A stretch of 64,000 bases of DNA. Source: a phage. Positions 17,962 to 47,135 of this stretch are shown here, one piece after another (position 1 is the first letter of the stretch; the number at the start of each line of letters is the position of its first letter). Made by a program: the position numbers and the translations under genes. The notes below the pieces were generated by a model. The model was not told the DNA's origin and ran no database searches. It saw nothing but the letters and a program-made list of their open reading frames with translations. The stretch lies in NCBI GenBank assembly GCA_011884725.1, contig GCA_011884725.1_3919.1; one strand, 5' to 3'.

Positions 17962-18038
17962 CTCTGTTTAGCTCAGCTTGGTAGAGCGTTCCGTTTGGGG
18001 CGGTAAGGCCGGAGGTTCAAGTCCTCCAACAGAGACCA
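17962..18038 (+). tRNA. tRNA-Pro (anticodon TGG)
   Basis: 7-bp acceptor CTCTGTT/AACAGAG, T-arm GGAGGTTCAAGTCCTCC, anticodon loop TTTGGGG, encoded CCA. Confidence 0.75.
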
Positions 18039-18045
18039 AATTAAT

Positions 18046-18123
18046 GTTCCAGTAGACAAAATGGTAAAGTCACCACTCTTTCAAAGTGGATATCTGAGGG
18101 TTCAAATCCCTTCTGGAACGCCA
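18046..18123 (+). tRNA. tRNA-Glu (anticodon TTC)
   Basis: Acceptor GTTCCAG/CTGGAAC, anticodon stem CCACT/AGTGG, loop CTTTCAA, T-loop TTCAAAT, CCA. Confidence 0.75.
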
Positions 18124-18126
18124 GTT

Positions 18127-18205
18127 TTGACAGAAGACCAATTACAGCAAACTTAATCTTATTCATCTGAAGGTAAATCGGACAAAGAAGAGATTTGGTC
18201 TGGTC
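18127..18205 (+). ncRNA. inter-tRNA structured element E1
   Basis: CAGAAGACC-box, helix AGACCAA (18135-18141) / TTGGTCT (18195-18201), TTACAGCAAA box inside. Confidence 0.5.
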
Positions 18206-18214
18206 ATTAAGAAT

Positions 18215-18291
18215 TGCGGGTATAGAGAAAGGGCGTCTCACATGTCTCATTAGCATGGTATCGGCAGGTTCGACTCCTGCACCCGCCTCCA
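18215..18291 (+). tRNA. tRNA-Met-like (anticodon CAT) with 1:72 mismatch
   Basis: Anticodon stem CATGT/GCATG, loop CTCATTA, T-arm GCAGGTTCGACTCCTGC, 3' ACCCGCC-T-CCA; 5' end TGCGGGT leaves position 1 unpaired. Confidence 0.6.
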
Positions 18292-18294
18292 AAT

Positions 18295-18365
18295 TTACAG
18301 AAGACCGTTTACAGCAAAATTGAATGAAATTTTTAGCGGAAAAATTGAAAGATACGGTCTGGTAA
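18295..18365 (+). ncRNA. inter-tRNA structured element E2
   Basis: Helix AGACCGT (18302-18308) / ACGGTCT (18354-18360); compensatory to E1; TTACAGCAAAA box. Confidence 0.5.
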
Positions 18366-18375
18366 TACTAAACAT

Positions 18376-18449
18376 GGTTAGGAAGCACATAAGGTATGTG
18401 CGGTCGCCTGTTAAGCGAATGGCACAGGGTTCGAATCCCTGACTAACCG
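18376..18449 (+). tRNA. tRNA-Asn (anticodon GTT)
   Basis: Acceptor GGTTAGG, D-stem GCAC/GTGC, anticodon loop CTGTTAA, T-arm CAGGGTTCGAATCCCTG; no encoded CCA. Confidence 0.65.
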
Positions 18450-18461
18450 CAAAATTGAAAT

Positions 18462-18549
18462 GTGTCGTTATCCCGTAGATGGTAGCGGTGGGGACTGTAA
18501 ATCCCTTGTCATTGAGACTCGGTAGGTTCGACTCCTACACGGCACACCA
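18462..18549 (+). tRNA. tRNA-Tyr (anticodon GTA), long variable arm
   Basis: Acceptor GTGTCGT/ACGGCAC, anticodon loop CTGTAAA, long variable arm, T-arm GTAGGTTCGACTCCTAC, CCA. Confidence 0.7.
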
Positions 18550-18554
18550 ATAAA

Positions 18555-18631
18555 GGCTATGTAGTTTAACTGGAGAAAATACTCCCCTGTCACGGGAGAT
18601 GATGTGAGTTCAAGTCTCATCGTAGCCGCCA
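18555..18631 (+). tRNA. tRNA-Asp (anticodon GTC)
   Basis: Acceptor GGCTATG/CGTAGCC, anticodon stem CTCCC/GGGAG, loop CTGTCAC, T-loop TTCAAGT, CCA. Confidence 0.75.
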
Positions 18632-18685
18632 AATTATAATAAGTATTTCAAAATGATGTTTTGAGAGGGCTATTTAGCCCCTCCC

Positions 18686-18716
18686 TTAAAGAGTTCTTAC
18701 GAGTATTCTTTAAAGG
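18686..18716 (+). ncRNA. hairpin with conserved TTCTTACGAG loop, copy 1
   Basis: TTAAAGAGTTCTTACGAGTATTCTTTAAAGG; second copy at 22027-22056 has a different but still complementary stem. Confidence 0.45.
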
Positions 18717-18795
18717 AGCAGAAGACCAAATACAGCAAGAATGTATGATATTTTCAAGCCAATCCAATTTTGAAAAAATTTAAAACTTGGTCTGG
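18717..18795 (+). ncRNA. inter-tRNA structured element E3
   Basis: CAGAAGACC box, helix AGACCAA (18723-18729) / TTGGTCT (18787-18793), ATACAGCAAG box. Confidence 0.5.
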
Positions 18796-18804
18796 CTCAA
18801 CAAA

Positions 18805-18939
18805 TTTACAGAAGACCGTTTACAGCAAAACTTAAACAATCTATTTCTCGGTAAAGAAAAGGCGAAGGTTCGATTCCTTCACTCGGCAGATGTCGAGTTG
18901 GTGTAATGGTAGCACTTAAGATGATAAACAACGGTCTGG
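18805..18939 (+). ncRNA. element E4 enclosing a tRNA-like module
   Basis: Helix AGACCGTT (18813-18820) / AACGGTCT (18930-18937); inside: T-arm GAAGGTTCGATTCCTTC, hairpin ACTCGGC-AGAT-GTCGAGT, D-arm-like GTGTAATGGTAGCAC. The order is 3'-half before 5'-half. Confidence 0.45.
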
Positions 18940-18940
18940 T

Positions 18941-19084
18941 AATTATCTTTGTAGATAAGTTATTAAGCTTACCTGTGAGTATGCGACCACAAAGGGTGAA
19001 AGGGTAAATTCTAGATTTAAACCCAAAAAGGCACATCGCTACAGACCTTAAGCAAGTCTGGGTAGCTTATCTACAAAGATAATT
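18941..19084 (+). ncRNA. structured RNA closed by a 19-bp perfect helix
   Basis: AATTATCTTTGTAGATAAG (18941-18959) is the exact reverse complement of CTTATCTACAAAGATAATT (19066-19084); inner hairpins include CAGAC/GTCTG. Confidence 0.5.
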
Positions 19085-19088
19085 TAAT

Positions 19089-19164
19089 GGAAGTGTAGCA
19101 GAATGGTGATGCGGCAGACTTTTAATCTGACAGGCGATGGGTTCGAATCCCTCCACTTCTACCA
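19089..19164 (+). tRNA. tRNA-Lys (anticodon TTT)
   Basis: Acceptor GGAAGTG/CACTTCT (G1.U72), anticodon loop CTTTTAA, T-loop TTCGAAT (weak T-stem), CCA. Confidence 0.65.
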
Positions 19165-19168
19165 ATAT

Positions 19169-19245
19169 GGTTCAGTCGCAGATAAGGTAATGCAAGGGTC
19201 TCATAAGCCCTATGAATGTGGGTTCGATTCCCATCTGAACCTCCA
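19169..19245 (+). tRNA. tRNA with CAT anticodon (elongator Met or Ile2-type)
   Basis: Acceptor GGTTCAG/CTGAACC fully paired, anticodon stem AGGGT/GCCCT, loop CTCATAA, T-loop TTCGATT, CCA. Confidence 0.65.
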
Positions 19246-19246
19246 A

Positions 19247-19322
19247 GCTGGTATAGTTAAGAAGGTTATAACACTCCCCTGATAAGGGAACATCGGTGGT
19301 TCGATTCCACCTACCAGTACCA
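19247..19322 (+). tRNA. tRNA-Ile (anticodon GAT)
   Basis: Acceptor GCTGGTA/TACCAGT, anticodon loop CTGATAA, T-arm GGTGGTTCGATTCCACC, CCA. Confidence 0.7.
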
Positions 19323-19337
19323 ATTTCAATAAAGTTG

Positions 19338-19366
19338 TTGACATTGAGATGTGACTACTTTATAGT
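19338..19366 (+). promoter_or_regulatory. internal promoter within tRNA array
   Basis: TTGACA (19338-19343), 17-nt spacer, TATAGT (19361-19366). Confidence 0.6.
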
Positions 19367-19568
19367 AACCTTAGTTTTCGTTGCGTAGCGTCTATTTTGC
19401 AAATTTAAAATAAATGCAAACGACAATGTTTTTCTGGCAGTAGCTTGATAGGCTAAACACCAGTGAGGTCTTCCAATCCCTCATCAAAGAATTTGGCGTA
19501 CTCGCCCACGGTATGATTAATAAGGTGGGCATCTTTAAGGGCTTTCTAAGAGAGTCTTTAAAGATAAT

Positions 19569-19645
19569 GCACCCTTAGTTCAATTGGATAGAGCAACGGT
19601 CTTCTAAATCGTTAGTTACAGGTTCGAATCCTGTAGGGTGTACCA
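19569..19645 (+). tRNA. tRNA-Arg (anticodon TCT)
   Basis: Acceptor GCACCCT/AGGGTGT, D-arm TAGTTCAATTGGATAGAGC, anticodon loop CTTCTAA, T-loop TTCGAAT, CCA. Confidence 0.75.
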
Positions 19646-19787
19646 AATAGTTAGCAGATTACTTAGACGGCCTTAGCGGGTCTTCCTGTAGGGAGGTGGT
19701 CTGTATCTCATGTTTTCCAGAACATGTAAATAATCTGAGAAGAAGCTTGACAGTGTTGAGATAACAGGGTAAGCTTCGAATTATAAT

Positions 19788-19870
19788 ATGGGACGATGTT
19801 AAGACTCTAAGGCATGAGCAACGGCCTCCAAAACCGTTTCAAAGGGGTTCAACTCCTCCGTCCCATGCCA
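19788..19870 (+). tRNA. atypical tRNA (anticodon probably CCA, Trp?)
   Basis: Acceptor ATGGGAC/GTCCCAT, T-loop TTCAACT, CCA; anticodon stem AACGG/CCGTT encloses 9 nt (CCTCCAAAA); D region is 4-8 nt longer than usual. Confidence 0.45.
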
Positions 19871-19883
19871 AAGTCTTATTAGG

Positions 19884-19971
19884 GGTAGGTAGCGGCTAAT
19901 GGTAGCCAAACTGTCTTGAAAACAGTTGCCACTGTAGAGATACGGTGAGGGTTCGACTCCTTTACTTACCG
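19884..19971 (+). tRNA. tRNA-Ser (anticodon TGA), long variable arm
   Basis: Acceptor GGTAGGT/ACTTACC, anticodon stem ACTGT/ACAGT, loop CTTGAAA, long variable arm, T-loop TTCGACT. Confidence 0.65.
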
Positions 19972-20126
19972 CCTAATAAGATTTACTCCGTCCATGCTTG
20001 TTCGCATTGTCGGTTTATCCCTCGTGTATTGTCGTACACTGTCAAAGCACCTAGTAGGTGTCACGGAGAAGAGATAATATCAAGCTCTCCAAAGGTTCTA
20101 GTCACCGGATTAAACAAGACTATGCA

Positions 20127-20151
20127 AAGACCTATTTAGGTCTTTTTAGAG
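20127..20151 (+). terminator. intrinsic terminator inside tRNA array
   Basis: AAAGACC-TATTTA-GGTCTTT followed by TTTAG. Confidence 0.5.
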
Positions 20152-20227
20152 GGCTTCTAAGGTTATTAGTCGCTTGTTGTGGAACCTTGTTGCTTAGGTT
20201 CTTAGAAGTTCTCTAAAAAGATTTAAT

Positions 20228-20305
20228 GGGAGATTGACGGTAATTGGTAAACCTACCATCCTTAGAAGTTGGTGTTTGAGGGTTCGAATCCCTTGTCTCC
20301 TACCA
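20228..20305 (+). tRNA. tRNA, class I shape, anticodon TAG (Leu?)
   Basis: Acceptor GGGAGAT/GTCTCCT, anticodon loop CTTAGAA, 5-nt variable loop, T-loop TTCGAAT, A73, CCA. Confidence 0.5.
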
Positions 20306-20312
20306 AATTAAT

Positions 20313-20388
20313 GCAGGTGTAGCAAAATGGTTATGCGGCTGACTCTTAATCAGTAAGACGATGGGTTCAATTCCCTCCACCTGTACCA
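20313..20388 (+). tRNA. tRNA-Lys (anticodon CTT)
   Basis: Acceptor GCAGGTG/CACCTGT, anticodon stem GCTGA/TCAGT, loop CTCTTAA, T-loop TTCAATT, CCA. Confidence 0.6.
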
Positions 20389-20394
20389 AACATT

Positions 20395-20470
20395 GGGGAT
20401 GTAGTTTACATGGTTAAAACATAAGTTTTGCAAACTTAAGTACAGGGTTCAATTCCCTGCTTCTCCACCA
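20395..20470 (+). tRNA. tRNA-Cys (anticodon GCA)
   Basis: Anticodon stem AAGTT/AACTT, loop TTGCAAA, T-arm CAGGGTTCAATTCCCTG, CCA. Confidence 0.65.
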
Positions 20471-20476
20471 ATTAGT

Positions 20477-20551
20477 GCATCCATAGTTTAAACGGGAAAA
20501 TTACAGTCTTCCAAACTGAGGTTGAGGGTTCGATTCCCTCTGGATGCTCCA
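20477..20551 (+). tRNA. tRNA-Gly (anticodon TCC)
   Basis: Acceptor GCATCCA/TGGATGC, anticodon loop CTTCCAA, T-loop TTCGATT, CCA. Confidence 0.65.
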
Positions 20552-20557
20552 AACAAT

Positions 20558-20634
20558 GCTGCTTTCGTATAATTGGCTATTACACATCCCTTGTAAGGAT
20601 GGAAATGCAGGTTCGAGTCCTGTGAGCAGCACCA
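20558..20634 (+). tRNA. tRNA-Thr (anticodon TGT)
   Basis: Acceptor GCTGCTT/GAGCAGC, anticodon stem CATCC/GGATG, loop CTTGTAA, T-loop TTCGAGT, CCA. Confidence 0.7.
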
Positions 20635-20635
20635 A

Positions 20636-20730
20636 TTCAGAGGTCAAGTGAAAGACCGCTTTGAGTCAACTGAAGACCGTAACAAATACCACGGAGTTGA
20701 GTTAGCGGCACAACTTCAGACCTCTTTCAT
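20636..20730 (+). ncRNA. structured spacer element between tRNA-Thr and tRNA-Val
   Basis: Closing helix CAGAGGTC (20638-20645) / GACCTCTT (20722-20729); contains a GAAGACCGT box as in E2/E4; no T-loop. Confidence 0.4.
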
Positions 20731-20805
20731 ACTCGCTTAGTTTATATGGTAAAACATCACCCTTACAAGATGAAGAAAAAGGTTCAAGTCCTTTAGTGAG
20801 TACCA
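20731..20805 (+). tRNA. tRNA-Val (anticodon TAC)
   Basis: Acceptor ACTCGCT/AGTGAGT, anticodon loop CTTACAA, T-arm AAAGGTTCAAGTCCTTT, CCA. Confidence 0.6.
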
Positions 20806-20806
20806 T

Positions 20807-20884
20807 GTTCCAGTATCCCAATTGGCAGAGGATGCAAGCTCAAACCTTGTATTAGTGACGGTTCGAATCCGTCTTGGAACACCA
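20807..20884 (+). tRNA. tRNA, class I shape, anticodon CAA (Leu?)
   Basis: Acceptor GTTCCAG/TTGGAAC, anticodon stem GCAAG/CTTGT, loop CTCAAAC, T-arm GACGGTTCGAATCCGTC, A73, CCA. Confidence 0.5.
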
Positions 20885-20889
20885 ATTTT

Positions 20890-20965
20890 GCAGGATTAGT
20901 TCAAATGGAAAGAGCAACAGTCTACGAAGCTGTTAATAGGGGTTCGAATCCCTTATCCTGCGCCA
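20890..20965 (+). tRNA. tRNA-Arg (anticodon ACG)
   Basis: Acceptor GCAGGAT/ATCCTGC, D-stem GTTC/GAGC, anticodon stem ACAGT/GCTGT, loop CTACGAA, T-loop TTCGAAT, CCA. Confidence 0.75.
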
Positions 20966-20982
20966 GATAAAAAGGTGATACT

Positions 20983-21225
20983 ATGCAAACATTAACAGTA
21001 GTTGAACATGAAAACTGTGAGAGTATTGAGTTTGTCAGGGTCATTGGTGTTGAACACCACATTTTCTTAAAAGTGGGATACTTATGTGACCCCGCTAGAG
21101 TAGAAAGATTTATACGTGATTGTTTTGGTGGTAGACATCTGAAGAGTGTTATTTTTGAGACAGTTTTACCAGAAGGTTTAGAAACGAATAATAACATTTA
21201 CCTCCTTACGAGGATTAGACAATGA
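20983..21225 (+). CDS. hypothetical protein embedded in tRNA array
   Basis: 80-aa ORF; RBS AAAGGTGA 7 nt upstream of ATG. Confidence 0.5.
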   Translation: MQTLTVVEHENCESIEFVRVIGVEHHIFLKVGYLCDPARVERFIRDCFGGRHLKSVIFETVLPEGLETNNNIYLLTRIRQ

Positions 21226-21779
21226 GATACTTAAAGTATGCTTCATGGATTTTCTTAGCTTTGTTAGAGCCATTTGCAGCAATCTTAGCAGTTATCTTAG
21301 CACCTTTTGTAGTTCCATTCTACAGTGAGAAGAAAGGACACTTACCTTTCGGGTTCAGATGGATGGAGACATATGACAACCCAATTGATGGTGATGAAGG
21401 TCACGTTAAAAGATGGGCTAATATTAGATGGATTGGTAAACTAGGTGTCTACATGCAAAGAGTCGGATGGCTCTGGAGAAACAAAGCTTATAACTTCTCT
21501 TACCATGTATTAGGAAGAGATGTAAGAGATGTTACTAAGTGGAAAGGTAATATCAACGTAAGTTCTAACCCTGAAGATAATCAGACTGGTTATCTCCTAA
21601 TGTGGAACAGTAATGCTTGGGGATTATTCGCTTTTATCCCATCAATTAAAGTCTTCGGTAAACAGTTTTACTGGAGAATTTATGTTGGATGGAAACTTAA
21701 AAGTGTTGTCCCAGAAGAAAGAGCATTCTCAAGGGAAAGAGTTATGTTGGCATTCTTTATTCATCCACTGAGAAAGTAA
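21222..21779 (+). CDS. hypothetical membrane protein embedded in tRNA array
   Basis: 185 aa; N-terminal TM segment (WIFLALLEPFAAILAVILAPFVVPF); start overlaps previous stop; RBS GAGGA. Confidence 0.6.
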   Translation: MRYLKYASWIFLALLEPFAAILAVILAPFVVPFYSEKKGHLPFGFRWMETYDNPIDGDEGHVKRWANIRWIGKLGVYMQRVGWLWRNKAYNFSYHVLGRDVRDVTKWKGNINVSSNPEDNQTGYLLMWNSNAWGLFAFIPSIKVFGKQFYWRIYVGWKLKSVVPEERAFSRERVMLAFFIHPLRK

Positions 21780-21787
21780 AGATTTAA

Positions 21788-21863
21788 AGGGGATTAGTTT
21801 ACAAGGTTAAAACCTCGGTCTTTGAAATCGAAGAAGTTGGTTCAATTCCAACATCCCCCGCCA
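21788..21863 (+). tRNA. tRNA-Gln (anticodon TTG)
   Basis: Anticodon stem TCGGT/ATCGA, loop CTTTGAA, T-arm GTTGGTTCAATTCCAAC, 3' ATCCCCC-G-CCA; position 1 (A) unpaired with C72. Confidence 0.6.
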
Positions 21864-21865
21864 AT

Positions 21866-21944
21866 GCTCCATTACTCCAATTGGCAGAGAGGCCAGACTT
21901 AAAATCTGTGTTATGTATCGGTTCGAATCCGATATGGAGTACCA
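21866..21944 (+). tRNA. tRNA, class I shape, anticodon TAA (Leu?)
   Basis: Acceptor GCTCCAT/ATGGAGT, anticodon loop CTTAAAA, T-arm ATCGGTTCGAATCCGAT, A73, CCA. Confidence 0.5.
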
Positions 21945-21949
21945 AATTT

Positions 21950-22025
21950 AGCGGTATAGCATAACTGGCAATGCAGCAGTCTCTGAAGCTGTCCTATTAA
22001 GGTTCAAATCCTTATGCCGCTGCCA
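21950..22025 (+). tRNA. tRNA-Gln (anticodon CTG)
   Basis: Acceptor AGCGGTA/TGCCGCT, D-stem GCAT/ATGC, anticodon stem GCAGT/GCTGT, loop CTCTGAA, T-loop TTCAAAT, CCA. Confidence 0.6.
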
Positions 22026-22026
22026 C

Positions 22027-22056
22027 TTCTAAGGATTCTTACGAGAGTCCTTAAAT
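22027..22056 (+). ncRNA. hairpin with conserved TTCTTACGAG loop, copy 2
   Basis: TTCTAAGGATTCTTACGAGAGTCCTTAAATG; stem TAAGGATTC/GAGTCCTTA. Confidence 0.45.
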
Positions 22057-22132
22057 GTGGCCTTATCATAAATGGTAATGACCCATGCTGTGAACATGGT
22101 CTATACGGGTTCAAATCCCGTAGGTCACCCCA
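22057..22132 (+). tRNA. tRNA-His (anticodon GTG)
   Basis: Acceptor GTGGCCT/AGGTCAC, anticodon stem CCATG/CATGG, loop CTGTGAA, T-arm ACGGGTTCAAATCCCGT, CCA. Confidence 0.7.
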
Positions 22133-22138
22133 ATTTAT

Positions 22139-22214
22139 AGTCCAAGTAGCTTATATGGTTAAAGCGCGTGTCTGAAAAACATGAGAAGAGGGTTCAAATC
22201 CCACTGGACTACCA
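22139..22214 (+). tRNA. tRNA-Phe (anticodon GAA)
   Basis: Acceptor AGTCCAA/CTGGACT, anticodon stem CGTGT/ACATG, loop CTGAAAA, T-loop TTCAAAT (short T-stem), CCA. Confidence 0.6.
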
Positions 22215-22230
22215 ATTTCAAAGGTGCTTA

Positions 22231-22965
22231 ATGAAAGAGATGACAGAACAAGGTAAGGAGATTTTCAATCTCTTAAAAACCGGTAAAGGGTTTTCTAACC
22301 CCCTTATTACTGGTGCAGCAGTTCTCGGTGGAACCGTAGCTGCCTCTACATCACTTGTAAGCTCTATTAGCTCTGTATCAGACCCTACAGTAAAGGATAA
22401 GCTTGTTGCTGCTGGACTTACAACAGTTCTGCTTAACAGCTTTACCACGAGTCTGACAAGCACTACATCAACTACCAAAACACTAACAGATTACGGTCAA
22501 AAGTCCATTGATGAGTTTTCATCACGTATGCAGGTAGCAAAAGGTTACTCTAATGTTATGGGTGCAGCAGGTGAACAAGTTGGCTGTACACCATTTAGTG
22601 GTATTATGGGTGTTGCTACAGAGTATGGTCAAAAAACTATTGATACGATTAACAGTGTACTAGATAGTGTTAATGGTGTGTTAAGTGACTTACAAGATGC
22701 TATTGACAAAGGTCTTGATACTATTTCTGATTTAGCTGAGCAAGCTGTTAGTAAGATTAATGAAGGTATTTCAAAAATTACAGCTTATGCAGATGAAGTT
22801 GTGCAGATGATTGAAGAAGAAGCTGCTCTTATTGCAGAGTACCTTAAAACGAATATCAATGGGTTCTTAGCAGGTATCTTACCAGACTGGTTTGATGATG
22901 CTTGTAAAACTGGTGTAATTGACACTATTGCAACACCAGAAATGAAGAACGCATTACAGAAATAA
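22231..22965 (+). CDS. hypothetical protein (Ser/Thr-rich N-half, helical C-half)
   Basis: Listed ORF starts at 22168 inside tRNA-Phe; in-frame ATG at 22231 with RBS AAAGG chosen. Confidence 0.55.
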   Translation: MKEMTEQGKEIFNLLKTGKGFSNPLITGAAVLGGTVAASTSLVSSISSVSDPTVKDKLVAAGLTTVLLNSFTTSLTSTTSTTKTLTDYGQKSIDEFSSRMQVAKGYSNVMGAAGEQVGCTPFSGIMGVATEYGQKTIDTINSVLDSVNGVLSDLQDAIDKGLDTISDLAEQAVSKINEGISKITAYADEVVQMIEEEAALIAEYLKTNINGFLAGILPDWFDDACKTGVIDTIATPEMKNALQK

Positions 22966-22967
22966 AT

Positions 22968-23060
22968 GGAAGATTAACCCTAAAAGGTAAGGGAGCAGTT
23001 TGCTAAACTGCCAGTAGCTGAGAAATCGGTGTACCAGTTCAAGTCTGGTATCTTCCTCCA
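22968..23060 (+). tRNA. tRNA-Ser (anticodon GCT), long variable arm
   Basis: Acceptor GGAAGAT/ATCTTCC, D-stem CCC/GGG, anticodon stem GCAGT/ACTGC, loop TTGCTAA, long variable arm, T-arm ACCAGTTCAAGTCTGGT, CCA. Confidence 0.7.
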
Positions 23061-23064
23061 ATTT

Positions 23065-23140
23065 GAATCCGTGACAGAAACGGCTATGTGCCTGTCTGCA
23101 AAACAGGTTTATAAGGGTTCGAGTCCCTTCGGATTCTCCA
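23065..23140 (+). tRNA. tRNA with GCA anticodon (second Cys-like)
   Basis: Acceptor GAATCCG/CGGATTC, anticodon stem CCTGT/ACAGG, loop CTGCAAA, T-arm AAGGGTTCGAGTCCCTT, CCA; atypical D-arm. Confidence 0.5.
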
Positions 23141-41698: not shown

Positions 41699-42553
41699 AT
41701 GTTTGAAAAGATTGATAGTGTCTATTATAAAACACTTGATGAAAGGACTGTAACACAGTTTAAAGATAAATTTATCTATACAAGTATCTTGAAAGCAATC
41801 ACTGATGAGCTACAAACACTAGAGGATGTTTGCTGGCAGATGCACACAGAGAGAAATATCAGGACGTCAGTAGGTCAACAACTTGATAATATTGGCTCAC
41901 TGATTAAAGTTCCCAGACCTTTAGGTGCTGATGATGAAACATATAGAGCTATGCTTTATATCCAAATCTTCCTAAGACGTTCTGATACTACTCCAACATT
42001 CTTGCAAAAAGCAATTATGACATTGTATGGTGCAACTTTCTCTCAGATTTTTGAGCATATTACTCCTAAGACTGGTGGTATCGTTATCCGTATTAATACT
42101 AGAAAAAGCGTTCTTGATGCTGCATATACACTGTCAAAGATTTCTGCAACAACCACTGGTTCCGCTGTTATCTTAAGAGATGTTACTTTAAATGGGACCG
42201 CTTGGACACCTGTAGAGGTTGCTGATTCATCACTTGCTATTGTTGATGATAAAGAGAACTGGTTTGTAACTGATGCTAACAGAGGTCTGGTCACAAATAA
42301 CACTGGTGGCTCTCTGGAGTCCAACCTAGTAGGGAGTCTTGCAGATGCTGGTGTTATTGATGGTTACTTTAAGGTTGACAGAACAGCAAACTCACAGAGC
42401 GATGATTATATGACTGTAGATAGGTCTAATAATAGTGGCTATTTCATTGCTGGTAAAGAAGCTATTGCAGGTGGTGCATATGGAATCATGGCTGAGGTTG
42501 CACAAATTGTCAAAGGCAGAAAAGATAAATCACAACAAGAAGGAAATTCTTAA
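41699..42553 (+). CDS. baseplate/tail protein (gpI-like)
   Basis: 284 aa following the J-like gene. Confidence 0.5.
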
Positions 42554-42855
42554 TGGCAGTTCTAAATTGGTCTACAAACGAAGTAGATACTGATGGTAAT
42601 CAGTTAAAAGTTTTACCACCACCGGAAGTTCAAGAGACAGGTCTTTTAAAGGGTGAGCCTATGGGTAGGCAGTGGTTCAACTATATTATCAACTACCTGC
42701 TGAATAAAGTAAATGGCACTGTTGGTGAAGTTCGTTCATATGCAACTGAGCAACCAGATTTAGTGGCTAATGGCTGGAACCTCATTAAGTCTGAGACAGG
42801 GACTGCATCAACAAGTACAAGAAACCTTTACACATATGAATATGTAGGAGCTTAA
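42553..42855 (+). CDS. hypothetical tail protein
   Basis: 100-aa ORF. Confidence 0.5.
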
Positions 42856-42857
42856 TA

Positions 42858-44033
42858 ATGGCAGTAGGTGAAATTCAAATTAGTGCCTTGCCACAAGCGG
42901 CCTTACCAATTGATTTGAGTGATATCTTCCACCTTAAGCAAGGTGTTGAGGATAAAAGATGTACGCTTGAGCAGTTGTTAGCACCTCACGCATCTCTGAG
43001 GAATAATCCTCATGGTGTAACTAAATCACAAGTGGGTCTTGATAATGTTATTAACTCTCTTCAATTAGTTGCAGCTAATAACTTGTCAGACATCGTGAAT
43101 GTTGCTGAGGCAAGAGCAAATCTACAAATTATGTCGTCAGAGGAAGTGAATAACTTAATTCAGCAACATATTGACGACAAAAGTAACCCACACAATACAA
43201 CGAAAGCACAGGTTGGTTTAAGTAATGTTCAGAACTGGACAACATCTAATCTGTACAATGAAGATGCTGATAAGTATGCTACAGCGAGAGCAGTGAATAA
43301 CTTATACAAAGCTATCCAAGCATCATATCCAGTGGGGACTATTCATCTGTCTGTTAACTCTGCTAACCCATCCACTTACTTGCTTTGTGGTGGCACTTGG
43401 GAGTTAGTTTCTAAAGGTAGGGCACTAGTTGGTTATGATACAGATTCTAGACCTGTTGGTTCAATGTTTGGTTCTCAGACTGTAGCATTAACAAATAATA
43501 ATTTACCAGCACATACTCACTCTATCTACCTAACAGGTGGTGGTCATACACACTCTGCAAGTGTATCTATCTCTAGTTTTGATTATGGTTCAAAAAGCAC
43601 ATCAACTTTTGATTACGGTACAAAAACGACTAATAGTGCTGGTGCTCACACTCACACGTTTAGTGGCACAACAAGTAATGCTGGTAACCACAACCATAGA
43701 GTTCCTATGAGGGGTAATGATAGGGGTGGCACAAACGCTATTACTGCATCTGCTGATGCTGGTGTTGGTAATGCTATGTATACTGATTTAGCTGGTGCTC
43801 ACACCCATAGCTTCTCAGGTACAACTGCATCATCTGGTGCTCATAGTCATACTGTCGCAATTGGTGCTCACAGCCACACTGTTAATATTGGTTCGCACAG
43901 TCATACAGGCACTGTTACTGTTTCTAGCTCTGAGCATACACACTCAGGGACAACTGGTTCTGTTGGTGGTGGTCAAGCATTCAGTGTTGAGCAGCCATCT
44001 TTTGTAGTGTATGTGTGGCAGAGAACAGCTTAA
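42858..44033 (+). CDS. tail fibre protein with His-x-His repeats
   Basis: 391 aa; repeats GAHTHSFSGTT, GAHSHTVAIGAHSHTVNIGSHSHTG; C-terminus homologous to that of the next gene. Confidence 0.7.
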   Translation: MAVGEIQISALPQAALPIDLSDIFHLKQGVEDKRCTLEQLLAPHASLRNNPHGVTKSQVGLDNVINSLQLVAANNLSDIVNVAEARANLQIMSSEEVNNLIQQHIDDKSNPHNTTKAQVGLSNVQNWTTSNLYNEDADKYATARAVNNLYKAIQASYPVGTIHLSVNSANPSTYLLCGGTWELVSKGRALVGYDTDSRPVGSMFGSQTVALTNNNLPAHTHSIYLTGGGHTHSASVSISSFDYGSKSTSTFDYGTKTTNSAGAHTHTFSGTTSNAGNHNHRVPMRGNDRGGTNAITASADAGVGNAMYTDLAGAHTHSFSGTTASSGAHSHTVAIGAHSHTVNIGSHSHTGTVTVSSSEHTHSGTTGSVGGGQAFSVEQPSFVVYVWQRTA

Positions 44034-44043
44034 TTTCTTTACA

Positions 44044-44068
44044 GGGGCTTTATAGCCCCTTTTAAGAG
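44044..44068 (+). terminator. intrinsic terminator between fibre genes
   Basis: GGGGCTTTATAGCCCC followed by TTTTAAG. Confidence 0.55.
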
Positions 44069-44079
44069 GAAAACTTATA

Positions 44080-46452
44080 ATGGCAGATTACAAATTGAGT
44101 CAATTAAACTCAATCGACACAATTCGTTCAGAAGACCTATTGCACATCAGAGTTAAGAAAAGACCTGAAATGTTGGGTGATGAAGACCGTAGAATGACCT
44201 ATCAAGATTTCTTAGCTTCCTTCAAACTAGAAAGGTTTGTTCAGATTGCTGGGAGTACTATGATTGGGGATTTAGGTATTGTCAAGTTACTTTACGGTGG
44301 TAAGACGGTATTTGACCCAACAGGCTCTTCTGAGGTTACTATTGGGGATGTTTTAAAGACTTTTAAAATTAACGCAAATGGTCTTAAACTAACTATTGCA
44401 GATGCTTCAAGGTCAGCAACTGTTTATCATACTCTGAATAAGCCAAGTCCTAATGAGCTTGGTATGAGGACTAATGAAGAGAATGATGCAAGATACGCAA
44501 GACTTGCTATCACAAACACATTCTCTGGAACTCAAAATATTCAAGGTGATGCTAACTTACTTCGCCTTAGAAACCAAAATGCAAATAATGCACAATATAT
44601 CGAAGGTGTAAACCTAGATGGTTCGGCTAGATGGTGGGTTGGTATTGGTAGTAATGGCTCTGACGAAGTAAAGCTGTACAATAACAAATACAACTCAGCC
44701 TTGACTGTTGCAAGTAATGTCTCTGTTAATAAGTCTTTAGCAATCACTGGTCAAGTTCAACCTTCAGATTTCTCTAACTTAGATGCTAGATACTTCACTC
44801 AGACAGTTGCTAATCAGAGATTTGCACAGTTAGCTGCTAATAATAATTTCACGGGCACTAACACGTTTAGTAGAAATCTAACTATCATTAGTGACAGTGC
44901 TGCTTTAAGGTTGAAAAATGCAACAGCTAGCTCACTATTCATTCAGGGTGTTGACTCTCAGAACACTAACAGGTGGTATGTAGGGAACGGGGATAACACA
45001 GCCTCTGTGCTGCTACACAACTATGTACACGGTTCAAATATCAGACTTGATAATGGCTATATCTCAGTCAACCAGAACTTCAGAATCACTGGTCAAGTTC
45101 AACCTTCGGATTGGACTAATATTGATTCTAGATATATTCCGGCAGCAACATTAAGTACTATTGCAAGAACTAATGCACAAAACACTTTTAACGGTGTACA
45201 GAAAGTTGTTACGGATAATGAAGCTCTAATTTTGAAAAACTCTACTCAGAACAGACCATTGTATATCCGTGGTGTGGACACTGCTAATGTGTCAAGGTGG
45301 TGGGTAGGTGTTGGTGGGGCAGATACTAATGATGTTACCCTAAATAACAGTTTTTCTGGCACTCAGTTAGTTTTAGGTAACTCATCTGCAAGCATCAATA
45401 AGACACTATCCCTGACTGGACAGATTCAGCCCTCTGATTTCTCTAACTTAGATGCTAGATATTATACGCAATCTACAGCAAACTCTAGGTATATGCTTGC
45501 TTACTCTTCTGGCACTGGTACAGAGGTAGGTGATGGTGATGGTATTGCTTGGAATGCTAAAACTGGTCTGTATAATGTTACAGGTAAATCTGGTAGTTCA
45601 ACACAGCTAGTCTACCATATGTATCAGGGTACAAGTTCTACACCATCTGCTCAATTAAAATTTGACTATAGAAATAGGGGTTGTTGGTATAGGTCAGCAA
45701 GAGATGGGTATGGGTTTGAGAATACTTGGGCTAAAATCTATACAGACCAAGATAAACCAACCCCTTCAGATATTGGTGCATACACTAAAGCAGAAACTGA
45801 CCAGAAGATTGCAAAAGCAATTAGTGACTCTACAGACCTGAATAAAATCTATCCAGTAGGTATTGTGACGTGGTTTAACAGTAATGTCAACCCTAACACA
45901 GCACTTCCTGGGTTAACTTGGACGTACCTGAATAATGGTGTTGGTAGAACTATTAGAATTGCAGCAGCAAACGGTTCAGATGTTGCTACAACTGGTGGTT
46001 CAGACTCTGTAACGTTGTCTGTTGGTAACTTACCTTCACACACGCACAGCTTCTCTGCTACCACTTCATCATTTGATTATGGTACTAAGACTTCTAGCAC
46101 AACTGGTAACCACAACCACAACAGAGGTACTATGGAGATTACTGGTACAGTAGGTTACTTTAGAAGTGACTCTAGCAGCTTCTACACAGCAAGTGGTGCA
46201 TTCACACTTGGTAGCTCAACTGCTTCTAAGGGTTTTACTGGCTCTAACTTCACTAATGGTATCCCTGCTAACTTTAATGCGTCAAGAACTTGGTCTGGTG
46301 TAACGAATACAACAGGTAACCACAGCCACACTGTTGGTATTGGCGCTCACAGCCACACAGTTAGCGGTAACACAGGTGGTACTGGTTCTGGTTCAGCATT
46401 TAGTGTTACTAACCAGTTCTACAAGTTAATGGCTTGGGTAAGAACTGCTTAA
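44080..46452 (+). CDS. long tail fibre protein
   Basis: 790 aa; internal repeats (LTGQVQPSDFSNLDARY x3), C-terminal HxH block and ..SAFSV..W.RTA tail shared with 42858-44033. Confidence 0.75.
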   Translation: MADYKLSQLNSIDTIRSEDLLHIRVKKRPEMLGDEDRRMTYQDFLASFKLERFVQIAGSTMIGDLGIVKLLYGGKTVFDPTGSSEVTIGDVLKTFKINANGLKLTIADASRSATVYHTLNKPSPNELGMRTNEENDARYARLAITNTFSGTQNIQGDANLLRLRNQNANNAQYIEGVNLDGSARWWVGIGSNGSDEVKLYNNKYNSALTVASNVSVNKSLAITGQVQPSDFSNLDARYFTQTVANQRFAQLAANNNFTGTNTFSRNLTIISDSAALRLKNATASSLFIQGVDSQNTNRWYVGNGDNTASVLLHNYVHGSNIRLDNGYISVNQNFRITGQVQPSDWTNIDSRYIPAATLSTIARTNAQNTFNGVQKVVTDNEALILKNSTQNRPLYIRGVDTANVSRWWVGVGGADTNDVTLNNSFSGTQLVLGNSSASINKTLSLTGQIQPSDFSNLDARYYTQSTANSRYMLAYSSGTGTEVGDGDGIAWNAKTGLYNVTGKSGSSTQLVYHMYQGTSSTPSAQLKFDYRNRGCWYRSARDGYGFENTWAKIYTDQDKPTPSDIGAYTKAETDQKIAKAISDSTDLNKIYPVGIVTWFNSNVNPNTALPGLTWTYLNNGVGRTIRIAAANGSDVATTGGSDSVTLSVGNLPSHTHSFSATTSSFDYGTKTSSTTGNHNHNRGTMEITGTVGYFRSDSSSFYTASGAFTLGSSTASKGFTGSNFTNGIPANFNASRTWSGVTNTTGNHSHTVGIGAHSHTVSGNTGGTGSGSAFSVTNQFYKLMAWVRTA

Positions 46453-46481
46453 TCCCTTGTTGACTGATTGTTAAGATGGTG
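46453..46481 (+). promoter_or_regulatory. possible promoter plus inverted repeat
   Basis: TTGACT, 17-nt spacer, TAATAT; overlaps inverted repeat AAGATGGTG..CACCATCTT. Confidence 0.4.
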
Positions 46482-46531
46482 TTAATATTCTTTATGGGTA
46501 TTCTCACCATCTTGGCTGATGAGGTGATTAA

Positions 46532-46729
46532 ATGCCTACAATCCTAGCAATTCTTCTAAAAAATCTAGGTAGCTTCTTCTGGAAACTCATTTTATCCCTT
46601 CTAAGTGAATACATGATTGAGAAAGTGTTCTTTAAGCTTGCAAGATACCTTGCGAGTAAAACAGACACACCTATTGATGATGAGTTCGTAGATAACTTAG
46701 AAAAAGCTTTTAAGGGGGAGAATAAATGA
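46532..46729 (+). CDS. hypothetical small membrane protein (holin-like?)
   Basis: 65 aa; hydrophobic N-terminus (ILAILLKNLGSFFWKLILSLL), charged C-terminus. Confidence 0.45.
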   Translation: MPTILAILLKNLGSFFWKLILSLLSEYMIEKVFFKLARYLASKTDTPIDDEFVDNLEKAFKGENK

Positions 46730-47097
46730 AGTGGCTAGAGGATGCTTTTAAAAACAATATTGGTGCAATTGTAGTTGGTATTTTTAGTGTTATTGGAATG
46801 TATACCACTATGCAAGTTTCAAGTGGTAAGCAAGAAGTATCTGTCACAACAAAGTTACAGCAGCTAGATAATTATTCCAAAAGTAACTATTCAGCTATTC
46901 GTGATTTACAGTCTGACATGAGACTGATTCAGCTAGGGATGGAGAACCAGAAAGTCCAGTTAGAGAATGTTAAGGGTGAAAACGCAAAACTTACCAAAAC
47001 CCTTGATAAATTCTCTGACAGTGTGAACAATCTGGCTCAATCAGTATCAGCCTTGCAAGCTATTACTGAAAAGAACACAAAGAATACTGAAAAATAA
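46726..47097 (+). CDS. membrane-anchored coiled-coil protein
   Basis: 123 aa; TM segment IGAIVVGIFSVIGMY then helical Q/L/N-rich region. Confidence 0.5.
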   Translation: MKWLEDAFKNNIGAIVVGIFSVIGMYTTMQVSSGKQEVSVTTKLQQLDNYSKSNYSAIRDLQSDMRLIQLGMENQKVQLENVKGENAKLTKTLDKFSDSVNNLAQSVSALQAITEKNTKNTEK

Positions 47098-47103
47098 AAT
47101 TTA

Positions 47104-47135
47104 AGGCTCCCGTAAAAAGGAGCCTTTTTTGTTTT
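47104..47135. terminator. bidirectional intrinsic terminator
   Basis: GGCTCC-CGTAAAAA-GGAGCC flanked by A-run upstream and TTTTTTGTTTTT downstream, between convergent genes. Confidence 0.65.

Follow-up and report, generated by a model that had tools for sequence, protein, structure and literature searches.

Adjacent tail fibre genes of a Felix O1-like phage appear to share a T4 gp37-type needle scaffold and carry unrelated heads

Two consecutive genes in a phage DNA stretch of 64,000 nucleotides, here called the window, encode proteins of very different length whose C-terminal ends are alike and rich in His-x-His (HxH) motifs. The question raised by this locus is whether both proteins present the same tip on shafts of different length, or whether they read different structures on the host surface. 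The original prediction had described them as two tail fibres with a shared tip and different shafts, suggestive of dual receptor use or of a short and a long fibre set, and both open reading frames were found at the positions and with the sizes that it gave (Table 1). The explanation favoured here, which is considered very probable, is that they are the short and long fibres (STF and LTF, respectively) of a Felixounavirus, with metal-needle tips of the T4 gp37 type and exchangeable heads.

The window is assigned by its DNA to Felixounavirus (the Felix O1-like phages), with 95% identity to vB_EcoM-Pr103Blw and 86% to Felix O1, and the gene order of its fibre region matches that of Felix O1 and Bas63. 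The order common to the window and Bas63 is wedge 2, wedge 1, platform, short fibre and long fibre, with protein identities of 96%, 84%, 87%, 76% and 63%, respectively, and in both phages the fibre genes are followed at their 3' side by two small ORFs and then by td/frd on the opposite strand. For the two small ORFs, the PHROG matches are to families without a known function, and one ORF also shows a weak Rz-like spanin match. The 100-aa platform orthologue matches PHROG 4141, a family that carries no function; its counterpart in Bas63, gp25, is the platform by which the baseplate wedge holds the long fibre (PMC12609058).

Table 1. Features of the fibre region, in window coordinates
Feature	Position	Strand	Basis
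100-aa protein, orthologue of Bas63 gp25 (long-fibre platform)	42553..42855	+	87% identity; same gene-order position
STF, 391 aa; orthologue of Bas63 gp26, Felix O1 gp76, Sf14 gp52	42858..44033	+	ORF; PHROG 2097; Bas63 identity
STF residues 1-47, N-terminal baseplate-binding region, motif EDKRCT (31-36)	42858..42998	+	motif read from translation
STF residues 48-135, short shaft, two NPHxxTKxQVGLxNVxN (at 50, 110)	42999..43262	+	regex matches
STF residues 136-218, collar domain (T4 gp10 C-terminal / gp37 collar type)	43263..43511	+	Pfam and PDB matches
STF residues 219-280, outgoing needle half, HxH at 219, 230, 264, 278, with FDYG(S/T)K repeats	43512..43697	+	aligned to T4 gp37 outgoing strand
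STF residues 281-314, head cassette, predicted distal receptor-contacting tip	43698..43799	+	variability; T4 gp37 head position
STF residues 315-362, returning needle half, HxH at 315, 329, 338, 347, 360	43800..43943	+	aligned to T4 gp37
STF residues 363-391 and stop, closing C-terminal strand ..GQAFSVEQPSFVVYVWQRTA, predicted return to collar	43944..44033	+	T4 gp37 C-terminus alignment
LTF, 790 aa; orthologue of Bas63 gp27, Felix O1 gp77, Sf14 gp53	44080..46452	+	ORF; PHROG 4277; Bas63 identity
LTF residues 1-130, N-terminal baseplate-binding region, motif EDRRMT (35-40)	44080..44469	+	family conservation 0.88-1.0, nearly invariant
LTF residues 131-475, shaft, three repeats of ~110 aa (gp37_trimer)	44470..45504	+	Pfam PF20744, three stretches, E=3e-85
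LTF residues 476-585, gp37_C-type domain, second variable module	45505..45834	+	Pfam PF12604, E=5e-26
LTF residues 586-653, collar domain	45835..46038	+	strong hhalign to STF collar; invariant in family
LTF residues 654-680, outgoing needle half, HxH at 654, 678	46039..46119	+	motif scan; 2XGF profile alignment
LTF residues 681-747, large 67-aa head cassette	46120..46320	+	15% identity to STF head
LTF residues 748-790 and stop, returning needle half (HxH at 748, 757), then closing strand ..SAFSVTNQFYKLMAWVRTA	46321..46452	+	family-invariant

That both genes encode tail fibres is borne out by the PHROG tail fibre families they match (E=2e-139 for STF; E=0 over the full length for LTF), by synteny and by their identity to Bas63 gp26 and gp27. 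In the cryo-EM study of Bas63 (Sci Adv 2025), gp26 forms a short fibre of 430 Å and gp27 a long one of 630 Å (PMC12609058), so that the proposed short and long fibre set is seen as such in a relative. Both Sf14 proteins, gp52 and gp53, were detected in virions by mass spectrometry (PMC11821841), and in the Felix O1 virion proteome gp77 was detected, while gp76 reached 9% coverage and was left off that paper's list (PMC3185647). Judging from Bas63 and Sf14, it is very unlikely that either gene of the window encodes a non-virion protein. The name short tail fibre denotes position and length, and not descent from gp12, since gp12 chains were absent from the PDB matches of STF at E<=1 and from those of its family profile at E<=0.01.

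Residues 1-50 of STF reach 89-99% conservation across the family, and its EDKRCT motif can be aligned locally to EDRRMT in LTF. The short shaft of STF (residues 48-135), for which AlphaFold2 (AF2) predicts helices, matches through its family profile the solved chain 9zd7, 'short tail fiber gp92'. Every repeat of the LTF shaft closes with ..ITGQVQPSD(F/W)xN(L/I)DxRY, is predicted by AF2 with a pLDDT of 70-87, and is visible at the DNA level as a repeat family (D1; period 342/327 nt). Within the shaft, a match to the pyramid region of T7 gp17 (chains 4a0t and 7boz) covers residues 275-345. The AF2 model of the whole LTF, with a pLDDT of 47, is too poor for use.

The C-terminal parts of both fibres are clearly related. 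BLASTP aligns residues 136-342 of STF to residues 564-761 of LTF (E=2e-17, 32% identity), and profile-profile comparison with hhalign extends the relationship to residues 154-391 and 588-790 (probability 99.8%, E=3e-28). The DNA similarity of the two genes is confined to short blocks (16-54 nt, 68-91% identity, mostly 68-76%), which argues for an old paralogy rather than a recent gene conversion. By sequence comparison, this common module is homologous to the receptor-binding tip of T4 gp37 (PDB 2XGF), as STF matches 2xgf_A over residues 145-362 (E=8.2e-27; E=2.4e-21 for its family profile), and LTF matches it at E=3.6e-4 on its own and at E=1.3e-10 as a family profile (profile positions 656-771). 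A collar stands just ahead of the needle in both fibres. In STF it falls within the Pfam Gp10_C match (residues 154-276, 67.4 bits, cut-off 27) and also matches gp10 chains 5hx2 and 2fkk, and 2XGF; in LTF, where Gp10_C scores 24.3 bits and thus lies under the 27-bit cut-off, it is recognised by hhalign to the STF collar. The closing strand of STF, whose family conservation is 0.78-1.0, aligns with the T4 gp37 C-terminus ..NIAFNYIVRLA. The AF2 monomer of STF shows a confident collar (pLDDT 82-91 at its core, residues 131-180, dropping to 68-76 near its end) and long strands at 222-238 and 349-365 that flank a disordered segment (281-311, pLDDT <50); Foldseek, queried with this model, found no related structure at E<=0.001. 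E. coli prophage fibres with this same module are present among the STF matches.

The proposed model is that the window genes encode the short and long lateral tail fibres of the phage, each of them a homotrimer, as its relatives suggest, and each bound to the baseplate through its conserved N-terminal region. As in Bas63, the short fibre would sit on a wedge protein, and the long fibre would be attached via the 100-aa platform protein encoded upstream. Each fibre would be capped by a T4 gp37-type tip composed of a collar, a six-stranded beta needle and a small head, every chain going outward along the needle, making the head and coming back to the collar, a reversal expected from the homology. 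At each HxH motif, the three chains would give six histidines to one axial metal ion, which is Fe(II) in T4 gp37. The metal-clamped needle would thus be the conserved rigid scaffold, and the head a hypervariable, interchangeable cassette in contact with the receptor. The target of the genus is LPS (PMC8594841, PMC8300805), and the receptor would most likely be LPS core or O-antigen sugars. If T4 is a guide, the long fibre would make the initial contact and the short fibre would follow. The homotrimers, the bound metal, the reversal of the chain, the place of both proteins in the virion, the type of receptor and the sequence of binding are all read across from relatives.

As the chain would run out along the needle, form the head and return to the collar, the segment between the HxH blocks, rather than the C-terminus, is predicted to be the true tip. 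In that sense, the idea of a shared tip on different shafts holds for the scaffold, that is, the collar, the needle and the closing strand, which appears to be all that the two fibres share and includes the similar final segments noticed before (..QAFSVEQPSFVVYVWQRTA and ..SAFSVTNQFYKLMAWVRTA), but it fails for the heads, which are unrelated (34 and 67 aa, 15% identity). The head also appears to be the hypervariable part of each family. In STF its family identity is 0.15-0.20, against 0.43-0.99 in all other 10-residue blocks, and at least 20 unrelated head types were found on the same scaffold. In LTF the column entropy of the C-terminal module lies mostly within about residues 671-747. The LTF head type of the window is rare, with nine cluster representatives at E<=1e-3, two of which are spurious repeat proteins.

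It could be argued that the specificity of the long fibre comes mainly from its lateral gp37_C-type domain (residues 476-585), the HxH tip being mostly structural. That domain is homologous to part of a phage Mu fibre chain (8JU3, E=1e-23), and of the 34 amino-acid changes relative to the Pr103Blw protein, 21 lie within residues 466-549. Moreover, in the 846-850-aa class of LTFs, that of O157 typing phages, the whole domain is swapped out and the tip is still 76-100% conserved. However, the LTF head region (671-747) is variable too, with at least five length classes that bear two or three HxH per strand, and the residues responsible for the specificity of T4 gp37 sit in its head region (PMC12609058, PMC9659904), so that this alternative is regarded as unlikely, though it is the strongest of those weighed. 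The two ideas on specificity are mutually compatible, and residues 466-549 could matter as much as the head.

A second alternative, that the fibres are redundant, with the same tip and receptor and differing in reach alone, would agree with the collar, needle and C-terminal strand common to both, and such an arrangement does exist in the genus, as the heads of Felix O1 gp76 and gp77 are 94% identical. Felix O1 is, however, the sole exception among the 12 genomes compared: in the other 11, including the window with its heads of unequal size, the STF and LTF heads differ. In addition, STF-head and LTF-head types pair independently across genomes, as in fBSPA4, whose STF head is close to that of the window (3 of 34 residues differ) and whose LTF head is different. 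Redundancy is therefore judged improbable for the window. Under the favoured model, since the two heads are unrelated, the fibres probably recognise different surface structures, and the dual receptor use proposed originally becomes a more plausible prediction.

The predicted metal sites depend on the HxH motifs. The His-x-His-rich repeats were indeed found in both proteins, with AHSHTVAIGAHSHTV and AHTHSFSGTT in STF, and SHTHSFSATT and NHSHTVGIGAHSHTV in LTF. STF has nine motifs and LTF four, well above the counts in 5000 composition-preserving shuffles (mean 1.4 and maximum 6 for STF; mean 0.2 and maximum 3 for LTF), and their layout on the outgoing and returning strands is 4+5 in STF and 2+2 in LTF, being 3+4 in T4 gp37. 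The counting method is considered sound, because the same regular expression recovers the published seven and six motifs of Bas63 gp26 and gp27, plus the seven of the solved T4 gp37 tip. In each protein, the first HxH (LPAHTHS in STF, LPSHTHS in LTF) sits at the junction between collar and needle. The kinship with metal-coordinating spikes that had been suspected was substantiated by the homology to the iron-binding T4 gp37 needle, and by that homology both window fibres would bind metal, with up to nine sites in STF and four in LTF, numbers that are upper bounds, as the first HxH may not hold metal. Bas63 fibre densities are too weak for side-chain modelling (PMC12609058), which leaves some room for the view that the HxH arrays are just a sequence habit of beta-strands, metal-free in these proteins. 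This is nevertheless a very improbable reading, given that, in the aligned STF and LTF families, almost all motifs have histidines that vary little or not at all, that the homology to 2XGF spans the motifs themselves, and that each of the seven motifs of 2XGF holds one iron ion (as cited in PMC12609058).

Finally, that the 391-aa protein is no fibre but serves in assembly or as a gp10-like part of the baseplate, as its top Pfam match (Gp10_C) and the low coverage of Felix O1 gp76 in virions could suggest, is scarcely credible, since the gp10 matches are confined to gp10 residues 439-535, the C-terminal domain that corresponds to the collar, the remainder matches the gp37 tip, and the orthologues are a cryo-EM fibre in Bas63 and a virion protein in Sf14 (PMC12609058, PMC11821841).

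The window is thus predicted to pair a 34-aa head on a needle of at most nine sites with a 67-aa head of a rare type on a needle of four; solved counterparts exist for neither. Head cassettes recur in the STF family, the LTF family and T4 gp37, with 65-82% identity to the T4 head. It is tentatively suggested that the head is a free-standing cassette that moves among STFs, LTFs and T-even gp37 proteins, the number of HxH clamps changing along with it (2+2, 3+3, 4+5 and others), and that the LTF head could be an unseen fold. For fibre engineering, the analysis gives exact cassette boundaries between invariant HxH clamps (residues 281-314 of STF and 681-747 of LTF), and flags residues 466-549 of LTF as a second variable module. 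The same-head pair of Felix O1 bears on the difference in host range between this phage and its E. coli relatives.

The T4 gp37 tip (PDB 2XGF, Bartual et al. 2010) resembles those of the window in its collar, its FDYGTK repeats, the HxH motifs on outgoing and returning strands, a variable head enclosed by the HxH blocks and a comparable last strand at the C-terminus, with seven HxH against nine in STF and four in LTF. However, it terminates a 1026-aa distal half-fibre joined to gp36/gp35/gp34, whereas the window fibres are single proteins predicted to attach directly to the baseplate. Gene 38 of T4, annotated as 'tail fiber assembly', lies directly 3' of gp37, and T4 gp37 requires the chaperone gp38. 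In contrast, a tblastn search with T4 gp38, which detects close homologues only and covered the window as a part of the genome, gave chance-level matches far from the fibres (best E=0.22), and no gp38/Tfa-type chaperone gene was found next to the fibre genes; therefore, their folding may differ from that of T4 gp37. The T4/lambda family of modular receptor-binding proteins (gp37 tip, lambda stf, PhiNP ORF6) is alike in combining conserved flanks with a divergent receptor-specificity insert, although its published description includes a neighbouring chaperone gene of the gp38/Tfa type (PMC9659904), of which none was found beside the window fibres.

Closer to the window, the arrangement is already known and has been published for Felix O1 (2010) and Bas63 (2025). 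The Felix O1 genome paper saw gp37-like C-termini in both fibres, and the Bas63 study described tips with collar, HxH needle, head and returning strand in both fibres, as well as their variability across the genus (PMC12609058). The fibres of Bas63 (JohannRWettstein) differ from those of the window in having seven and six HxH instead of nine and four, in heads unrelated to those of the window, and in the size of the LTF head (32 aa vs 67 aa). In Felix O1 the orthologues occupy matching positions, and gp76 also has nine HxH (4+5), but gp77 has six (3+3) and a 31-aa head nearly the same as that of gp76. Sf14, a Shigella phage of the genus Mooglevirus in the same subfamily, can be likened by lengths and motifs as described (PMC11821841), with fibres of 391 and 792 aa against 391 and 790, and EDRKCT and EDRKMT in place of EDKRCT and EDRRMT. 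The closest record is vB_EcoM-Pr103Blw gp73 / gp74 (MW481326), 95% identical in DNA across the whole region, whose proteins differ from the window fibres by five residues in the short fibre and 34 in the long one; the short-fibre head is identical, the long-fibre head differs by one residue, and the long-fibre differences cluster in the second variable module.

The short tail fibre (STF) and the long tail fibre (LTF), whose open reading frames lie where they were originally placed, both carry a C-terminal module rich in His-x-His (HxH) motifs, and the repeat strings and similar final segments (..AFSV....W.RTA) claimed for them are present in the translations. In the STF, 18 of the 24 histidines fall within nine HxH motifs; the LTF has 13 histidines, eight of which lie within four motifs. 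Shuffling each sequence 5000 times gave a mean of 1.4 motifs and a maximum of six for the STF, versus the actual nine, and a mean of 0.2 and a maximum of three for the LTF, versus the actual four. Motifs were counted with a regular expression that returns the published seven in the solved T4 gp37 tip, and the published seven and six for gp26 and gp27, the short and long fibres of Escherichia phage Bas63, so that the counting can be considered valid.

The module is common to the two fibres, since their C-terminal parts are homologous by BLASTP (E=2e-17) and, when the family alignments are compared by hhalign, residues 154-391 of the STF pair with residues 588-790 of the LTF at a probability of 99.8% (E=3e-28). 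In DNA, the common blocks of the two genes reach just 16-54 nt, with 68-91% identity (mostly 68-76%). This rules out recent gene conversion as the source of the likeness, and therefore no recent copying took place between the two genes.

The STF matches the crystal structure of the receptor-binding tip of T4 gp37 (2XGF; E=8e-27, residues 145-362) and its collar matches T4 gp10. The LTF reaches 2XGF with E=3.6e-4 as a single sequence and E=1.3e-10 as a family profile, and a gp10-type collar is found by Pfam in both fibres, with a score that passes the cut-off in the STF and falls slightly short of it in the LTF. The T4 gp37 tip runs from a collar through a six-stranded needle to a small head, at which the chain turns; the needle, to which three chains each contribute one outgoing and one returning strand, holds seven iron ions, each bound by one HxH motif per chain (PMC12609058, PMC9659904). 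By homology, the fibres of the window would also be trimers with reversing chains that bind metal. No credible homologue of the T4 chaperone gp38 was found by tblastn against the window. For the STF, AF2 gave a monomer model (pLDDT 68) in which the collar is predicted with confidence, long strands occupy residues 222-238 and 349-365, and residues 281-311 are disordered. A Foldseek search of the PDB with this model gave no match at E<=0.001, as expected of a query that is one chain of an intertwined trimer, and hence a poor one; the best matches, none of them at that threshold, came from long beta-hairpin pore formers, from gp10 and from the tip of the C24 fibre. The AF2 model of the LTF (pLDDT 47), made from an alignment of 34 closely related sequences, is unusable.

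With a chain that is predicted to turn back on itself, each fibre would end distally in its head, which lies between the two HxH blocks, and not in the C-terminus. The interpretation of the original prediction stands for the most part, but not its detail of a shared tip: only the scaffold is common, and the heads of the two fibres, of 34 and 67 aa, are unrelated (15% identity). Among 48 close homologues of the STF, identity to the window protein is 0.15-0.20 at residues 281-310 and 0.43-0.99 in all remaining 10-residue blocks, and no fewer than 20 unrelated heads occur on the scaffold with four outgoing and five returning motifs. Members of the LTF family have an invariant collar, returning strand and C-terminus, with column entropy mostly limited to about residues 671-747. 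The two fibres would therefore have their scaffold in common and differ in the part predicted to face the receptor, and different heads fit the recognition of two different surface structures.

Heads of the two fibres were compared in 12 genomes in which both genes were read. They are alike in Felix O1 only, where nearly the same 31-aa head (94% identical) is borne by both fibres, and unrelated (13-25% identity) in the other 11, all of them Felixounavirus genomes and the window among them; the same-head state appears to be the exception among the sequences compared. Head types are found on either fibre class: the Felix O1-type head occurs on STFs and on LTFs, and so does a T4 gp37-like head, 65-82% identical to that of T4. 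Such heads (YIEAWNGTGVGGN...) were seen on the Felixounavirus short fibres P0024 and P0027 and long fibres P0234, P0239 and P0152, which suggests that cassettes have been exchanged with T-even phages. One STF (P0048) bears a head that is related to the 67-aa head of the window LTF, with 37% identity. As a query on its own, this LTF head gave just 9 matches in a representative library of 1.84 billion proteins. Two of the nine, P0245 and P0249, were rejected as compositional artefacts, being repetitive Thr/Ser-rich sequences.

Features of the fibre region and related loci
Feature	Window (nt)	Residues	Remark
STF gene	42858..44033 (+)		391 aa
LTF gene	44080..46452 (+)		790 aa
STF HxH motifs		219, 230, 264, 278, 315, 329, 338, 347, 360	4 outgoing + 5 returning
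LTF HxH motifs		654, 678, 748, 757	2+2
STF head	43698-43799	281-314
LTF head	46120-46320	681-747
EDKRCT, STF		31-36
EDRRMT, LTF		35-40
NPHxxTKxQVGLxNVxN, STF shaft, copy 1	43005-43055	50-66
NPHxxTKxQVGLxNVxN, STF shaft, copy 2	43185-43235	110-126
LTF gp37_C-type domain		476-585	after shaft repeats
LTF segment with 21 of 34 differences from Pr103Blw	45475-45726	466-549
Gap between fibre genes, with hairpin	44034-44079
Promoter-like site	46460-46488		within 46453-46531
Two small ORFs	46532-47097		65 and 123 aa; after LTF gene
Two-way terminator-like hairpin	47103-47126
tRNA cluster	17962-23140		26 genes
tRNA-His(GTG)	22057-22132		in cluster
Felix O1 fibre genes			Felix O1 record L001, 6306-7472 and 7523-9871

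Upstream of these modules, both fibres start with a conserved baseplate-binding region containing the motif EDKRCT in the STF and EDRRMT in the LTF, and an equivalent pair has been noted in phage Sf14 (PMC11821841). The short STF shaft holds two copies of NPHxxTKxQVGLxNVxN, and in this region the profile of the STF family aligns with 9zd7, a solved chain named 'short tail fiber gp92'. The LTF shaft is made of three repeats of ~110 aa (Pfam gp37_trimer) that resemble the pyramid region of T7 gp17, followed by a gp37_C-type domain related to the phage Mu fibre chain 8JU3. Of the 34 amino-acid differences that separate the LTF from that of the closest relative, Escherichia phage vB_EcoM-Pr103Blw, 21 lie within residues 466-549. 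O157 typing phages have an LTF class of 846-850 aa in which the gp37_C-type domain is swapped out; by these sequence comparisons, the domain is a second variable module of the LTF.

The 46-nt gap between the fibre genes contains a hairpin, GGGGC-TTTATA-GCCCC, followed by TTTT, which looks like a weak terminator whose T-run is under the scan threshold. A promoter-like site (TTGACT-17-TAATAT, with TG upstream) comes directly after the LTF stop and overlaps the inverted repeat AAGATGGTG...CACCATCTT. Each of the two small ORFs that follow has a hydrophobic N-terminal segment and matches function-unassigned PHROGs. The 123-aa ORF also has a weak Rz-like spanin match and is annotated as holin in relatives; its Sf14 counterpart has been reported in virions (PMC11821841). 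A two-way terminator-like hairpin lies between this ORF (+) and the thymidylate synthase gene (-), where transcription units converge.

The region shares 95% DNA identity with Pr103Blw and matches 240 phage records, nearly all Felix O1-like. The window, Felix O1 and Bas63 have the same gene order: two baseplate wedge proteins (489 and 284 aa), a protein of 100 aa, the two fibres and two small ORFs, after which the opposite strand encodes thymidylate synthase and dihydrofolate reductase. Identity to Bas63 is 96% for wedge 2, 84% for wedge 1, 87% for the platform, 76% for the short fibre gp26 and 63% for the long fibre gp27. By this gene order and these identities, the window comes from a Felixounavirus, whose short and long tail fibres the two genes encode. 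The tRNA cluster compares with a reported 22 tRNA genes in Felix O1.

Cryo-EM of Bas63 has revealed a 430-A STF and a 630-A LTF positioned along the sheath (PMC12609058). The Sf14 counterparts gp52 and gp53 were found in virions by mass spectrometry (PMC11821841), the Felix O1 virion proteome includes gp77, with gp76 at 9% coverage (PMC3185647), and LPS is the receptor used by the genus (PMC8594841, PMC8300805). By analogy with these relatives, both fibres of the window are probably virion components and may use this receptor. The HxH module is already described for the genus, and what the window adds is only the way in which heads and HxH counts are combined in it, with nine motifs in the STF and four in the LTF, compared with nine and six in Felix O1 and seven and six in Bas63.
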